From contig CAYOYV010000015.1 in the NCBI GenBank assembly GCA_964408285.1, forward strand, positions 1-42,442: a stretch of 42,442 nucleotides of DNA. Reading direction: 5' to 3'. Origin of the DNA: an uncultured Nitrososphaerota archaeon (GTDB lineage Archaea > Thermoproteota > EX4484-205 > JAAOZO01). The notes under the pieces were generated by a model. That model was not told the DNA's origin and made no database searches. It worked only from the letters and a program-made list of their open reading frames with translations. How positions within the stretch are numbered: the first letter of the stretch is position 1; each line of letters begins with the position of its first letter. This document shows positions 3,979 to 38,376 of this stretch, one piece after another. Both the position numbers and the translations under genes were made by a program.

Positions 3979-4449
3979 ATGAAGTTGATGGCCCTACTTC
4001 TAGACAAGGATGATCCGAAGAAGTGTACGAGTAGAAAGCTTGCTAGGGCAGGGCTGGTATATGTAATTAGGAGCTCGTATCTGATACCAAGGAATTCGAT
4101 AGTGCTGAACCCAGAGGCGAAGGAAACGCTCTCCGAGAGGGACTTGGGATTGGCCGAAAAGCACGGCTTGGTAGTAATCGATACTTCGTGGAAGACTGGA
4201 ACTGAAATATTTTTGAAACTGAAGAGAGGTATCCACAGGAAGTTGCCAAGTCTGATCGCTGCAAACCCGACGAATTATGGTAAGCCATACGAATTATCTT
4301 CAGCAGAGGCACTTGCTGCTGGGCTATCGATATTCGGGATGAGGGATGAGGCGATTAGGATTCTCTCCGGATTCAAATGGGGAATGGAATTCCTGAGGCT
4401 GAACGAGTCACTGACGCGCACGGGCAAAAATGAACTCGTTTACCTTTGA
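3979..4449 (+). CDS. tsr3: 16S rRNA aminocarboxypropyltransferase Tsr3 (DUF367)
   Basis: DDPKKCT, DTSW, LPxLIAANPTNYGKP.ELSSAEA, FKWG motifs. Confidence 0.95.
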   Translation: MKLMALLLDKDDPKKCTSRKLARAGLVYVIRSSYLIPRNSIVLNPEAKETLSERDLGLAEKHGLVVIDTSWKTGTEIFLKLKRGIHRKLPSLIAANPTNYGKPYELSSAEALAAGLSIFGMRDEAIRILSGFKWGMEFLRLNESLTRTGKNELVYL

Positions 4450-5621
4450 AGATCCTCTATCCTTAGCACCATCGTTTCAGACGGCTTTTTCTCGACCTTT
4501 CCTATTCTCTCTCCAACTATGACTCTATACCCTAACGACTCCGCTTTGTCCACGATCCTTTGTGTGATGACACCATCGAATATTATAGCGAATTCCTCTC
4601 TGTGTTGGTCCAGAGATTCGAACAACTCTCCGACAGGAATCTCGGCGATCTGTCCGCCATCGTTTGATAGTATAACGGACAAGAGCTTTCCCTTCACGTG
4701 ATTTGCTCCCTCCTTGAGAGCATTCAGCTGTTTCTCATCTAATTGACCCCTCTTTTGAGCTTCTAAAGTCGTCAGATATTCCTGCACCGGAGTGGCTTTT
4801 CCTGCTAGATCTAGTATCTCTGCTGGACTCAATTCCTCCACTTCTTTACCAACAGGAGCTCTCACTATTGAGTCCAATTTTGCACCGGATCTCAATAGTT
4901 CCCTCAATATCATCTCTCCAACCCTGTCACCATCCAAGAAAGCCATTACTCGTCTCTTGTTCTTGGTTAGATTCACGAGGGACTGAGGCACGTTCACACC
5001 ATTTGTTGCCACAGAATTCTTGATTCCGGCAGCTATCAGTATTGAGACGTCTGCCCTGCCTTCGACTATCGTAAGATCTTCAGCAGTTTCGGCCTCCGGA
5101 CCTGCTGGCAACTGGTCCGGTCCCCAATTTATCGGCTTCGATAGCTCAGTTATCTCGACCACATTCGCTATTGCCTTGGTGTCTTCGGTGCGCCTCAATG
5201 CTTTCCATCTTTGCATTATCTCTTGCGCTCTATTCACTATCTCTTTTCTCTTTCTTTCCCTGAAGTCCTCTATTCCAAGTAGCGTGAACTTGGCATTATA
5301 TGGTCCGACCTTCTCTATGCTCTCCAAGGATGCAGCTAGGAGTGCCGTAGTAGGTTGATCCATGGAAGAAGGCACCGAAACAAACCCGACTGTTCTACCC
5401 TCCTGCTCCTTTGCATCTACATCTATCCTTCCTATTCGGGTGCCCTTCTGCAATTTCTTTAGGTCGAGGGTATCATCGAAGAGCCCTTCGGTCTGGCCGA
5501 AGACAGCGCCGATGACATCATGCTTTTGCGGGGGCCGTTAGGCCCTGTCCACAACCCCCTCGGCTTCGAATTTGAGCTTAACCAAGTACTTGAAATAAGG
5601 ACCAACTTGCTCCTCATTCAT
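4440..5621 (-). CDS. dnaG: Archaeal DnaG (primase-like, exosome-associated); two exons 5621-5547 and 5525-4440, 386 aa after splicing
   Basis: Toprim motifs IVEGRADV and AFLDGDRVG. The conserved N-terminus KYLVKLKFEAEGVVD/KHDVIGAVFGQTEGLF is restored only by removing 5526-5546. SD GGAGGTG at 5634-5640; an alternative in-frame ATG lies at 5642. Confidence 0.92.
5526..5546 (-). other. Predicted 21-nt BHB intron in dnaG mRNA, containing in-frame UAA
   Basis: Minus strand GTT-GTGG-AC|A-GGGCC-TAAC-GGCCC-CCGC-AA|A-AGC is a strict BHB; splicing gives GTG GAC AAG CAT (V-D-K-H). Confidence 0.88.
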
Positions 5622-5693
5622 CTTGTCACATAACACCTCCATAAAACTTGACTATTCGAATCGATAAACAGCTTTTATATAAATCTTAGTCAT

Positions 5694-6173
5694 TTGATTT
5701 TTGACGTGAAAGCGAAGAGGATCCGCCCGCGAATTGATTTGGCTCCGGGCTGGAACGAAGCCAGGCTTGAGCTGCTGACGAGGATATTTCGAGATATAAA
5801 ATCCCTTGGCAGAGACGACCTGATCCTTGTGGAGGGCAAGAACGACCTTAGAAGTCTGAGACGCATTGGAGTGGAGTCCAAGATCATAACCGAGAGCGAA
5901 CTGAGAAGGGGCAGAAGCATCAGTCCTCCCTCACAGACTAGGAACCAGCGGATAATCCTCCTACCGGACTTTGACAAAAAAGGAAGGCAAAACATGCGTA
6001 AGTGGCAGAAAGCCCTACAGCGGACCGCCAAAGTGGACGATTCAGTCTGGAGAAAGCTCCTGCATGTGACCAAAGGGGGAGCAGGGGGTGTCGAAGGGCT
6101 CTCAGCACTCGCAGTTAGGTTTGGACTCATAAGAGGAGGAATGTGGCTCGACCCTGACGAACAGGTTTCATAG
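5694..6173 (+). CDS. Small toprim-domain protein (RNase M5/primase-like)
   Basis: ILVEGKND and ILLPDFDKKG toprim motifs; divergent from dnaG. Start codon uncertain. Confidence 0.85.
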   Translation: MIFDVKAKRIRPRIDLAPGWNEARLELLTRIFRDIKSLGRDDLILVEGKNDLRSLRRIGVESKIITESELRRGRSISPPSQTRNQRIILLPDFDKKGRQNMRKWQKALQRTAKVDDSVWRKLLHVTKGGAGGVEGLSALAVRFGLIRGGMWLDPDEQVS

Positions 6174-6318
6174 GGGGCAAAGCCCTTCCTCACCAGACTC
6201 TAAAGTCGAGCCGGCGGCGGCTACTTTCCCCGCCCTGGGTACCCTTCCCTCATAGCAGGAGCTTGCAGCTCCGACCTCGGTCAAGTCCGCTTATATGGCG
6301 GGATATTCGCCTTCCGCC
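6123..6318 (-). ncRNA. Candidate structured non-coding RNA of unknown family
   Basis: GC-rich segment with about eight nested or adjacent stems. G-U pairs favour the minus strand. A BRE/TATA-like GAAAAGCTAATAATT lies ~25 nt upstream on the minus strand. Confidence 0.55.
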
Positions 6319-6434
6319 TTTACTAGAAGTCACAACGTGAATTATTAGCTTTTCGAAGAGAAAGGACACATGGGGCAACTTTCATTAATGTGATTCCGGT
6401 CAAATCGCCTGTGCTGTGTGTGGGGTAATGAAGC

Positions 6435-7679
6435 TTGCCCGAAAAACTGATGCTGACTGAGGAAGCTAGGGGCTACCTCAGGTATGGTCTGCCAGAGAAA
6501 AACCTCGCGGAGGCATTGAAAACAGGGCCTCTCACTATTGGAGAGGCCTCCAGGAGGGTGAAAAATCTGGACATAGCACTGCAATGGGGCAAGAAGAGGG
6601 GCTGGATAGAAATCAAAGGTGGCAGAATCTCTCTGGTAACTCCTCCTGAAGAGGTGCCGGAGGAGGAGGCACTGAGCAAGATTGCGAGGGGGGAATCAGT
6701 TGACGAATCCATGGCAAGGACCCTCGCAGAAAGGAAATTGGTCGTAAAGCAAAGCGATCTTCTCAGGAAGTTGAAGGAGCTTGATGGAAAGGAAGTGACA
6801 AACCTCACTCCAGATTTGATAAGAACGGGTTTCTGGAGAAATGTCAGGTTCAGGCCATACAATGTAGAGGTGCCTGGGAAGAAGGTGTATCCAGGAAAAA
6901 GACAGCCTTACAACGAATTCCTCTCGAATCTTAGACAGAAATTGGTAGAACTAGGATTCAAGGAAATGTCTGGGACAATTATAGAAACCGAATTCTGGAA
7001 CTATGATGCCCTATACCAGCCTCAGAATCATCCGGCGAGGGACTGGTTTAACACGTTTTATATAAAAACTACGTTAAAAGGAGAATTACCGAGAGTTGCA
7101 GGGGAAGTGAGAAAGGCACATGAGAAGGGAATCGCCGGCAGTTCGGGATGGGGATACAAGTGGGATCCATTAAAGGCTGTCCGTCTAATGCCAAGGGCGC
7201 ATGGCACTGCCCTTTCAGCAAGGACACTGGCAAAGGGTCCTGAGATGCCTGGAAAGTACTTCGCGATTTCGAGATGCTTCAGGCCGGATGTGATAGATGC
7301 TTTCCATGGGGTTGAGTTCAACCAGGTAGAGGGGATAATAGTGGACAATACACTGACGTTCAAAAACCTGCTGGGAATTCTTGAGATGTTCTCGAAGGAA
7401 GTTGCTGGAGCTGAACGCATAAGATTCGTTCCGGACTACTATCCGTTTACAGAGCCTTCCGTTGAGATGAACGCTTTACATCCAGAATTGGGCTGGATAG
7501 AAATCGGAGGAGCTGGGATATTCAGGGAGGAACTTACCATACCATTACATGTGGACGCTCCAGTTATCGCTTGGGGGCTCGGCGTGGACAGGTTGGCGAT
7601 GTTCAAACTTGGCATAAATGACATACGCGATCTGTTTTCAAAAGATCTAGATTGGATGAGACAAAAAGGGTTGGTCTAG
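6435..7679 (+). CDS. pheS: Phenylalanine-tRNA ligase alpha subunit
   Basis: FWNYDALYQPQNHPARD, FRPDVIDAFH.EFNQVEG, YYPFTEPS, WGLGVDRLAM. Confidence 0.98.
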   Translation: MPEKLMLTEEARGYLRYGLPEKNLAEALKTGPLTIGEASRRVKNLDIALQWGKKRGWIEIKGGRISLVTPPEEVPEEEALSKIARGESVDESMARTLAERKLVVKQSDLLRKLKELDGKEVTNLTPDLIRTGFWRNVRFRPYNVEVPGKKVYPGKRQPYNEFLSNLRQKLVELGFKEMSGTIIETEFWNYDALYQPQNHPARDWFNTFYIKTTLKGELPRVAGEVRKAHEKGIAGSSGWGYKWDPLKAVRLMPRAHGTALSARTLAKGPEMPGKYFAISRCFRPDVIDAFHGVEFNQVEGIIVDNTLTFKNLLGILEMFSKEVAGAERIRFVPDYYPFTEPSVEMNALHPELGWIEIGGAGIFREELTIPLHVDAPVIAWGLGVDRLAMFKLGINDIRDLFSKDLDWMRQKGLV

Positions 7680-26220: not shown

Positions 26221-26283
26221 GTAGTATGGTGGTTTTGTATTTAAGTTCTTATTTCGAGCTGCCAAAAGCCATCCGGAACTAAG

Positions 26284-26377
26284 TGGGCCGGGCCGGGCTC
26301 GAACCGGCGACCTTCTGCGTGTCAGGCAGATCTTAGAGGCAAGCTCCTCCTGTCCTAACCGCCTAGACGACCGGCCC
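26284..26377 (-). tRNA. tRNA-Val(GAC) with a 20-nt intron at 25/26 (26332-26351)
   Basis: GGGCCGG/CCGGCCC-A acceptor; TCTGC-CTGACAC-GCAGA anticodon arm; insert AGGAGGAGCTTGCCTCTAAG in a relaxed BHB (TAGG/TCTA). Confidence 0.9.
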
Positions 26378-28893: not shown

Positions 28894-29411
28894 AGCCTAG
28901 ACGAATTCGTCAGTCTTAAATCCCTATCGTATTGGACGCAGACAGATGTCGAACACATTCATAGCTGTAAAAGGAAAATAGACAAGACTGACAAACACTC
29001 CCGTGCTTCGATAGAATCAAGCGCGTTCATCACGAAGCCCGCAGTGGCCTCTGCTGATTATCGTGATTGGGAATCGGATCGCCTCCGGGTCCCTCTTCTT
29101 TTCTTTTTTGCGTATGTCTTACTCAGGGTTCCAAAACGCAACCAGGGTCCCCTCCCCCGGCATCCCTCTTAGGACCGGGTAGGCCTCGACTATCGGACTG
29201 ACGCAGAAGATCCGAACCGAAAACGTCCAAGCTTAATGTAGGTCTCACCATGAGAATGTACTCCTCTTTTCACGCTCACGCTTATTTGGCATCAAGGAAA
29301 CATGAGGAAAGGAATGACAAAGATGGTTAGGATTGACGTCTCGTATTGGATGCGAGATCGATTCTGCTGCCGGGGCTTCAACTAACCTGTGCGTGAAAGC
29401 AAGAAGAGAAG

Positions 29412-29500
29412 TGGACCGGCAGGGATTCGAACCCCGGACCTCCCGCAATTTGGGCCTCTGGAACGCCAAGCGGGCTCTCTACCAACTGAGATACCGGCCC
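29412..29500 (-). tRNA. tRNA-Ala(GGC) with a 16-nt intron at 37/38 (29448-29463)
   Basis: GGGCCGG/CCGGTCC-A acceptor with G3-U70; CCCGC-TTGGCG|..|T-GCGGG; central helix TTGG/CCAA. Confidence 0.92.
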
Positions 29501-34832: not shown

Positions 34833-36284
34833 TCAACCCTTGACTACTCCAATCGGAACTAGACGCACCACTTTCCTTGCCAGTCCTACTTTGTCAGATA
34901 CATCAGCTACCGCATCAACCGACTTGTACGCATCTGGAGCCTCCTCAGCCACGACTCCCATGTCGGCCGCCATTAGGATTATGCCTCGCGTTTGAAGTTC
35001 GCTTTTCACCTCAGAGCCCCTATGCTTCCTAAGGGCTGCAGCTCTACTGAGAAACCTCCCAGCCCCGTGCGCCGTAGAGCCGAAACTCAGTTCCATAGAT
35101 GATTCGGTTCCTTTGAGGACCCAACTTGATGTTCCCATAGAGCCAGGTATGAGAACAGGCTGGCCACTTTCCCGGTATTTCTTAGGCACCATATCACTTC
35201 CGGGAGGGAATGCCCTCGTAGCGCCCTTCCTGTGAACCACGAGCTTCAATCTCTTCCCATCGACGGAATGCTCCTCAATCTTTGCAATATTGTGCGCGAC
35301 ATCGTACACGGGCCTCAAGCCCAGCTTATCCGGGCTTACTCCAAAGACCGAGCCGAAGGATTCCCTGACCCAATGAGTTATCATTTGCCTGTTCAAAAAT
35401 GCGTAATTGACCGCCGAAGCCATAGCTGCAAGGTAGTCTCGGGCCTCAGGTGTTCCGATCGGTACCGCCGCAAGTTCCCTATCCGGCAGAGAAATATGGT
35501 ATTTCTCAGATCCCCTCTCCATCGCTCTGAGGTAGTCACTGCAGACCTGATGCCCATATCCCCTGCTCCCAGTGTGAACGAAGACAACCGCTTGGCCGTG
35601 ATGCGTCAAGCCATAGGCTTCTGCAGTTTTCTGATCGAAGATGCTATCAACTACATCTATCTCCAAGAAATGGTTTCCGCTTCCCAGCGAACCCAGTTGC
35701 GGCTTGCCTCGGCTTCGGGCCCTCTCGCTGACCTTGCTGCTGTCAGCATCAGGCATTCTTCCGTTTTCCTCGATGTACTCCTTATCCTCATCCCAACCGT
35801 AGCCCCTCTTTATGGCCCAGTCTACTCCCTCCTCAACGGCTCTGTTCAATTCATCAACGGTGAGCCTAACTTTTCCCTCAGAGCCAAGACCTGACGGCAC
35901 ATTTGTGAAAAAAGCCTTCAGCAAATCCGTGAGCTTAGGTCTCAAGTCCTTTTCATCAAGGTTTGTGGTGAGCAGACGTACTCCACAGTTGATGTCGTAG
36001 CCAACGCCTCCCGGTGACACAACACCCCCATCATATGCGGTTCCAGCTACTCCGCCGATGGGGAAACCATACCCTTCATGCCCATCAGGGAGCGTGATGG
36101 AGTATCTTTGTATGCCAGGCAGGAACGAGACATTTGCCGCTTGCTCCAATGTCTTGTCCTCCTTCATTTTCTGCAGGAGATTCTCATCCGCGTATATTCT
36201 GGCGTTTACCCTCATGCCGCTCCTGTAAGTCCTCGGGATCTCCCAGATGTAATCACTCACTTTATTCAGATTACCTCTGAACAT
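34833..36284 (-). CDS. rtcB: tRNA-splicing ligase RtcB
   Basis: PDGHEGYGFPIGG, GYDINCGVR, GSLGSGNHFLE, HRKGAT, PGSMG, HGAGR, EEAPDAYK. Confidence 0.98.
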   Translation of the reverse strand: MFRGNLNKVSDYIWEIPRTYRSGMRVNARIYADENLLQKMKEDKTLEQAANVSFLPGIQRYSITLPDGHEGYGFPIGGVAGTAYDGGVVSPGGVGYDINCGVRLLTTNLDEKDLRPKLTDLLKAFFTNVPSGLGSEGKVRLTVDELNRAVEEGVDWAIKRGYGWDEDKEYIEENGRMPDADSSKVSERARSRGKPQLGSLGSGNHFLEIDVVDSIFDQKTAEAYGLTHHGQAVVFVHTGSRGYGHQVCSDYLRAMERGSEKYHISLPDRELAAVPIGTPEARDYLAAMASAVNYAFLNRQMITHWVRESFGSVFGVSPDKLGLRPVYDVAHNIAKIEEHSVDGKRLKLVVHRKGATRAFPPGSDMVPKKYRESGQPVLIPGSMGTSSWVLKGTESSMELSFGSTAHGAGRFLSRAAALRKHRGSEVKSELQTRGIILMAADMGVVAEEAPDAYKSVDAVADVSDKVGLARKVVRLVPIGVVKG

Positions 36285-38163: not shown

Positions 38164-38279
38164 ATGATCGGTAAGGCATCGTTTATTGCTTTTGTCCGAA
38201 GTGGCCAAGAGGTAGAGTTAGGGAACAAAGGGGCGTTTCATGGCTCTCCTAATTGCATGGACCTTCTATTGGGATTAGG

Positions 38280-38376
38280 CGCCCGGAAGGAGATTCGAAC
38301 TCCTACGGCCCGCAAGGGGCCACAGGCTTTCTCAAGGCTCAAGGCCTGCGCAATAACCAGGTTCTGCCATCCGGGC
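38280..38376 (-). tRNA. tRNA-Ser(UGA) with a 9-nt insertion/intron at 37/38 (38329-38337)
   Basis: GCCCGGA/TCCGGGC-G acceptor; long variable arm GGCCC/GGGCC; CAGGC-CTTGAG|CCTTGAGAA|A-GCCTG. Confidence 0.88.

Follow-up and report, generated by a model that had tools for sequence, protein, structure and literature searches.

The window, i.e. the whole stretch of 42,442 nucleotides analysed here (contig CAYOYV010000015.1 of the assembly GCA_964408285.1, from an uncultured Nitrososphaerota archaeon), carries on its minus strand, at 4440-5642, a dnaG gene whose reading frame is interrupted close to its 5' end. The genome to which the window belongs (G000 below) is a metagenome assembly of 1.82 Mb in 46 contigs, 93.7% complete. 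As the DNA reads, the dnaG frame is ...KFEAEGVVD-RA*RPPQ-KHDVIGAVFGQTEG, and the interruption separates a short first exon from a long second one (Table 1). Exon 2 matches the NCBIfam model NF003108 'DNA primase DnaG' with 354 bits (cut-off 300) as well as the Pfam domains Toprim_4 and Toprim_2, both above their cut-offs. The NF003108 alignment runs from profile position 16 on, and hence leaves room for exon 1. Two ATG codons could start exon 1; ATG 5621, giving 25 codons that end in ...EGVVD, is the likelier one over ATG 5642. The words of the TATA-like box found upstream of exon 1 recur at the corresponding place in two related genomes, G002 and G004.

The insert and the codons next to it can be folded into a BHB (bulge-helix-bulge) motif of the hBHBh' layout. 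The 21 nucleotides take in one base of the 5' bulge (its third), the inner hairpin, the central helix's 3' strand and two bases from the 3' bulge. In pre-tRNA BHB motifs each bulge lies 3' of its central-helix strand, and both dnaG bulges are placed in this way. Cutting in silico after the second base of each bulge gives VVD|KHD. In the alignment with 12 full-length homologues the gene is longer by exactly 7 codons, and cutting at the BHB sites removes precisely these; the gene then reads FEAEGVVDKHDVIG against the consensus FEVEGVVEKPDVIG, with no gap relative to the intronless homologues. The initial annotation of this DNA had described an insert with an in-frame stop, its BHB layout and the repair of the frame by such a cut. 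All three descriptions hold: the TAA is read directly from the sequence, the outer helix, central helix, bulges and inner hairpin are present base for base, and the cut takes out the extra codons exactly.

Table 1. Coordinates of the dnaG locus, its BHB motif and the other features discussed (window positions unless a contig or locus is named)
Feature	Position	Strand	Remarks
dnaG exon 1	5547..5642	-	Frame open from ATG 5642; aligns with the N-terminus of full-length DnaG homologues
Putative BHB intron of dnaG, 21 nt	5526..5546	-	In-frame TAA 5540-5538; sits between the VVD and KHD codons
dnaG exon 2	4440..5525	-	361 codons + stop; begins KHDVIGAVFGQTEG; no other stop
Whole hBHBh' motif	5522..5555	-	Outer helix, central helix, two 3-nt bulges, inner hairpin
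Outer helix	5555-5553 with 5524-5522	-	GUU with AGC; one G-U pair
Central helix	5552-5549 with 5531-5528	-	4 bp, GUGG with CCGC; one G-U pair
Bulges, 3 nt each	5548-5546; 5527-5525	-	ACA; AAA
Inner hairpin		-	GGGCC-UAAC-GGCCC
TATA-like box TTTATATAAAA, putative promoter	5673..5683	-	Upstream of exon 1; proposed from the sequence
rtcB	34836..36143	-	Pfam RtcB, E 1e-168; 494-aa open frame, no stops; RtcB family models match
cbf5 insert, 15 nt	G000 contig C6 39016-39030; L039 1697-1711	+	In-frame TGA
pyrG (CTP synthase) putative intron, 23 nt	G000 contig C1 204628-204650; L114 2250-2272	-	BHB
dnaG insert in family f34, 26 nt	L041 428-453		
dnaG insert in family f34, 26 nt	L040 1229-1254		
dnaG insert in family f34, 19 nt	L068 375-393		
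dnaG insert in family f34, 33 nt	L067 1107-1139		

The genome encodes the enzymes that splicing of such an RNA would need. Two EndA paralogues were found, encoded on the G000 contigs C4 (194 aa) and C8 (217 aa). The one of 194 aa gives full-length matches to 2cv8_A, 3p1z_B, 3ajv_B and 2zyz_B, which we take to be crenarchaeal catalytic subunits, while the one of 217 aa maps to the N-terminal half of fused EndA models and matches 'subunit beta' weakly. The two together point to a two-subunit (alpha-beta) splicing endonuclease of the crenarchaeal type, with the subunit roles assigned provisionally from these matches. Available excerpts of PMC2738675 and PMC5829648 tie this type of EndA to relaxed motifs and to cbf5 splicing. 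The RtcB encoded in the window itself would be the expected ligase for the two dnaG exons. There are also two RNase PH genes in the genome, adjacent to each other, and by analogy with other archaea DnaG presumably sits on the exosome in this organism.

ARAGORN reports three long tRNA genes in the window, all on the minus strand (26283-26377, 29411-29500 and 38278-38376). In its intron mode, the second carries a 16-nt and the third a 9-nt intron, both at position 38, and the first, 95 nt long, is assigned no type. Only 22 tRNAs are found by ARAGORN across the genome, suggesting that many are probably hidden by non-canonical introns.

We propose that dnaG contains, within its coding sequence, a genuine tRNA-type (BHB) intron of the archaeal kind at 5546-5526 (minus strand), and put the probability of this reading at about 0.88. 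In the pre-mRNA the exon bases GUU-GUG-GA would pair with the intron CCGC and the exon bases A-AGC, a fold that would set both splice sites in 3-nt bulges flanking a 4-bp helix. The alpha-beta splicing endonuclease would then cut each bulge after its second base, and RtcB would ligate the exons to give ...EGVVD|KHDVIGAVFGQTEG... and a full-length DnaG. Unspliced RNA would yield only a short peptide; the 27 aa given by the initial annotation stand if translation starts at ATG 5621, and become 34 aa if it starts at ATG 5642. From the sequence we infer the cleavage, the ligation and the dependence of DnaG synthesis on both. In X20, the one RNA run covered, we found five short dnaG pieces, all less than 90% alike and coming from other organisms, and no RNA of this organism.

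The motif by itself carries no argument for an intron, since motifs of this kind are not enriched in the window over shuffled sequences. With h of at least 3, H of 4, h' of at least 5 and a length of up to 50, we counted 19 matches in the window, against 21.7 +/- 4.6 expected from 30 dinucleotide shuffles of the window; strict and loose motif counts alike show no enrichment over shuffles. By arithmetic from these counts, the rate of such motifs is about 7e-6 per position-and-length pair. What stands above chance in these comparisons is that the putative motif brackets exactly the 7 extra codons and that it is conserved across the class. The local fold of the dnaG insert shows no unusual stability either (z = -1.5, with 14 of 200 shuffles equally stable). 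In G000 a rival hairpin has an equal energy and the central helix has an ensemble probability of 0.43; across the class, the core of H and h' has an ensemble probability of at least 0.93 in 17 of the 23 genomes with dnaG. When BHB-like elements are ranked in G000 without any frame filter, the proposed intron is the top-scoring one in the 110 nt upstream of FGQTEG.

The insert is found throughout the class of this archaeon. Our class sample covers 26 species genomes from one order and four families, all of them metagenome assemblies. A dnaG match is present in 23 of them, and the three genomes without a match are 70-80% complete. All 23 genes have an insert at the identical dnaG codon, with lengths ranging from 18 to 41 nt: 18 nt (2 genomes), 19 (1), 21 (1), 23 (1), 24 (2), 29 (4), 30 (1), 32 (10) and 41 (1). 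In G003 the length of 19 nt is one C, within a run of Cs, away from that of the nearest relative, and could be an error. The frame is shifted by 17 of the 23 inserts, and the remaining 6 are in frame and all contain stops.

A BHB cut restores EGVVE/D-K/R-H/S-D...FGQTEG in 23/23 genomes when the loci are parsed with a restored-frame filter. We used this parse in place of a longest-helix one, which chose chance motifs in many loci. Without the anchor or the frame filter, the same element still ranks first in 18 of the 23 genomes. The BHB is canonical in 18/23 genomes, including G000, and relaxed in two genera (g2 and g3). In the five genomes of these genera the element ranks 7-9 among 42-68 loose matches and the motif is weak: the inner helix has 3-4 bp, g3 has a G.A mismatch in H, and g2 has no contiguous outer helix. 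The two g3 genomes, with a strong competing hairpin in addition to the central-helix G.A mismatch, have P(H) of 0.00.

It is the base-pairing of the insert that is conserved, and not its sequence. In the alignment of the 23 sequences (A2), 95.8% of the cells are paired, versus 30-56% after shifting the partners by 1-3 columns. Two-sided changes are seen in 7 of the 12 pairs, including all 5 pairs of the inner helix, whose variants include GGGCC/GGCCC, GAAUC.../...GAUUC, GAACCU/AGGUUC and AGACCUAG/CUAGGUUU. None of 500 shuffles reaches the pairing values observed in A2, a shuffle statistic that is inflated by the kinship of the genomes. The initial annotation had proposed that an alignment of dnaG from relatives be searched for compensatory changes and for intron-less alleles. 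The former are there, with every one of the five inner-helix pairs covarying; the latter exist outside the class, whereas none of the 23 class genomes has one. The presence of the insert at one codon in all 23 genomes, frame-breaking or stop-bearing throughout and covarying in its inner helix, supports the BHB intron reading made initially. The class-wide intron probably goes back to a single gain in the ancestor of the class.

Outside the class dnaG is generally unbroken at this place. Our phylum sample has 251 genomes, 245 of them with dnaG, and we took the best 150 of the 245 matches, 127 of which lie outside the class. Among these 127 outside-class matches listed, 119 run from residue 24 or earlier without a stop. 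Of the eight exceptions among the matches listed, five (G031, G145, G122, G222 and G207) prove to lack an intron when the DNA is read, one (G161) stops at the end of its contig, and two (G139 and G230) carry a different intron.

This different intron belongs to a family of the same phylum (f34), in which dnaG is split at FGQ|TEG, ten codons downstream of the class site. In G139 and G230 the inserts measure 26 nt; their H is CGGU/GCCG, the bulges are CAA and AAA, and the inner helix has 8 bp. An insert is present in 4/4 genomes of f34, while the 55 other dnaG-bearing genomes of its order are unbroken there. The 33-nt insert, in frame and with a TAA, differs in its inner helix. For all four genes, the best-scoring BHB in a search free of any frame filter restores ...VGALFGQTEGIFS. 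The f34 site is independent of the class site and represents a separate gain.

Other readings of the dnaG insert fit these data poorly. It would be extremely surprising if dnaG were a decaying pseudogene here, or the insert an artefact of assembly or sequencing. Such a reading could draw on the in-frame stop near the start of dnaG, on all sequences being metagenome-assembled and on gene callers giving truncated proteins only. But the initial annotation had suggested looking for the 21 nt in the raw DNA and for a second intact dnaG, and the results speak against decay and artefact alike: the insert is unchanged and without an indel in contigs of the runs X3, X4 and X9 (X3 being a possible source of the window DNA), and a search of the 93.7% complete genome gives this dnaG as the sole copy. 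Moreover, an intact exon 2 scores higher than the curated cut-off for DnaG, and all 23 class genomes have the same interruption with no further break. Exon 1 also keeps a coding pattern in its substitutions, as judged from 19 codons compared in 22 genomes (18 vary at the third position, 10 at the first and 7 at the second). We give just as little credence to the idea that the insert stays in the mRNA and that translation gets past it through stop readthrough, a frameshift or bypassing by the ribosome. A few known genes do have short gaps with stops that ribosomes bypass, e.g. gene 60 of phage T4, and 6 of the 23 insert lengths are divisible by three. However, the inserts fall into all three frame classes (6, 1 and 16 genomes) and use TAA, TAG or TGA depending on the genome, and hence no single recoding event fits; no matched take-off and landing codons were seen by eye in G000, and the conservation of pairing rather than of insert sequence also argues against recoding.

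A shorter DnaG made from an internal start, with the insert retained and exon 1 dispensable, is very unlikely. A 337-aa ORF does begin at TTG 5453 and many database entries are truncated calls of this kind, but a start there would lose the nearly invariant GAxFGQTEG block, and the truncated calls vary in where they begin, as artefacts of gene calling would. Throughout the class the protein sequence of exon 1 is conserved, and the TATA-like box is kept upstream of it in G000, G002 and G004, which is again at odds with a dispensable exon. We give the least weight to a reading in which a neighbouring homing endonuclease has spread the insert as a mobile intron or mini-element. With only 21 nt the insert is too short to encode anything, and its one fixed site across the class fits vertical descent. 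The idea owes what appeal it has to the divergent neighbour of dnaG, which has a Toprim-like nuclease-type domain; this neighbour matches the PRK04017 'hypothetical protein' family below cut-offs only, and it also adjoins intronless dnaG outside the class (L028, L029 and L030). For the record, the neighbour is a 159-aa Toprim-domain protein (window 5694-6173, plus strand), transcribed divergently from dnaG and conserved next to it in and outside the class.

The tRNA-type intron that we favour for dnaG has consequences for database annotation. The closest database proteins (P0001-P0033 and P0115) are N-terminally truncated, with lengths of 307-364 aa, and start just behind the insert, in agreement with the initial expectation that automated annotation would truncate the gene. 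One of them, P0014, reads through part of the insert (...RRARPTQKHDIIG). The public dnaG calls of this class are a systematic mis-annotation caused by the intron.

The dnaG gene is not the only interrupted protein gene of this genome. The cbf5 of G000 reads GTLE*IRGNPGVTGVL, and its insert splits the codon of the catalytic Asp (GTLD|P). The crenarchaeal cbf5 intron occupies the same catalytic-Asp site, according to the available part of PMC2738675. By eye, the 3' site of the G000 insert lies in an AAA bulge and the 5' site in a loop; our scan did not recover this element. Of 24 class genomes whose cbf5 match exceeds the cut-off, 22 have the gene split at profile position 70; in G000 and in one contig of G011 the model runs on across a single stop. 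A second match to cbf5 in G011 (contig C32 333-1325, L070) scores 420 bits, more than the other copy, and is read through with one TAA. This extra match could be a second copy or contamination.

The pyrG gene shows a further putative BHB intron, located between GGVLSS and GKGS. It has an outer helix of 6 bp, H GCUC/GAGC and an inner helix of 5 bp (CUCGG/CCGGG). The same site carries a 22-nt insert in G002 and G004 (2259-2280 in both L113 and L112), with a covarying inner helix, CUCGUC/GACGAG. In 18 other class genomes, including genus g2, pyrG is unbroken and matches its family from position 1-2, and hence the pyrG intron is the younger, recent gain. We scanned G000 for BHB motifs combined with ORFs, which reduced 97,968 loose matches to 308 and then to 28 final candidates, and dnaG and pyrG are the only convincing ones among them. 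The scan is not exhaustive, as it missed cbf5, whose inner helix has 1 bp. Taken together, the putative introns of dnaG, cbf5 and pyrG make up a small group of introns in the mRNAs of this lineage.

For Crenarchaeota, a BHB intron of the pre-mRNA of cbf5 was reportedly described by Watanabe in 2002. As far as the available excerpts go, PMC7714728 (2020) gives cbf5 as the only additional archaeal BHB intron reported, apart from its own case in a 5' UTR, and PMC2738675 (Yokobori 2009) has introns in other protein genes as predicted and unconfirmed. Our search of the full-text literature, whose coverage leaves out most subscription journals, found no report of a dnaG or pyrG intron. The crenarchaeal cbf5 intron resembles that of dnaG in several ways, again according to the available part of PMC2738675: both are short introns in coding sequences (16-44 bp in cbf5) with canonical or relaxed BHB borders, both are tied to a hetero-oligomeric endonuclease, and in both the inserts are partly in frame and partly not. 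They differ in their hosts, which are Desulfurococcales and Sulfolobales for cbf5 and an uncultured class for dnaG, and in that cbf5 splicing has been shown experimentally whereas dnaG splicing is deduced from sequence. The dnaG intron is, on these comparisons, a new case of the cbf5 kind, real and conserved, with its splicing as the inferred step.

Other spliceosome-independent systems share part of these features. The BHB introns of archaeal pre-tRNAs and pre-rRNAs have the same 3-nt bulges, 4-bp helix and cut after the second bulge base as dnaG, and EndA and RtcB are the enzymes expected for both. The host RNA of the dnaG intron differs from these in being an mRNA, and codons make up half of the motif, which is therefore also constrained by the protein. 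In HAC1/XBP1 splicing, IRE1 acts together with a tRNA ligase or RtcB in a regulated stress switch. This system is like dnaG in having a short mRNA intron removed without a spliceosome by an endonuclease and an RNA ligase, with the protein being changed, and unlike it in its endonuclease, its RNA motif and the regulated nature of the switch. Unconventional mRNA splicing of HAC1/XBP1 is mentioned in the available part of PMC13149111. The BHB intron of Haloferax volcanii HVO_1309 is likewise in an mRNA that is a substrate of the splicing endonuclease; it differs from dnaG by lying in a 5' UTR rather than in a reading frame, and was confirmed by an in vitro assay (PMC7714728, as excerpted).

Introns within the protein-coding genes of archaea have so far been viewed as a curiosity of one gene. 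If the introns described here are spliced, tRNA-type splicing of mRNAs has a broader place in the gene expression of archaea than has been supposed, these essential genes are systematically cut short by standard annotation, and the gain of the pyrG intron within one family offers a dated, studiable example of intron gain. The coupling of RNA decay to splicing capacity through the dnaG intron, as proposed in the initial annotation, is speculative. A wider hypothesis, which we consider doubtful, is that the N-terminus of dnaG is a recurrent and selected target of tRNA-type introns, given the class site and the f34 site, and that dnaG together with cbf5 and pyrG forms a housekeeping regulon whose translation is gated by EndA/RtcB. 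Such a regulon, if true, would link RNA decay, the modification of RNA and the supply of nucleotides to splicing capacity.

Breaks in reading frames were also seen at other places. The dnaG of G253 (L069, contig C45, about 1019-1138) matches in two different frames that are separated by 119 nt within the variable middle region, and this gap may reflect a frameshift, an error or a further intron. A candidate on contig C27 of G000 (about 6250-6720, minus strand) was rejected: it has a lone in-frame TAA (LLLTLR*SRKPPDE) with no BHB around it, and may be a pseudogene, an error or a case of readthrough. On reading its sequence, the gene resembles a transporter of the cation-diffusion-facilitator type.
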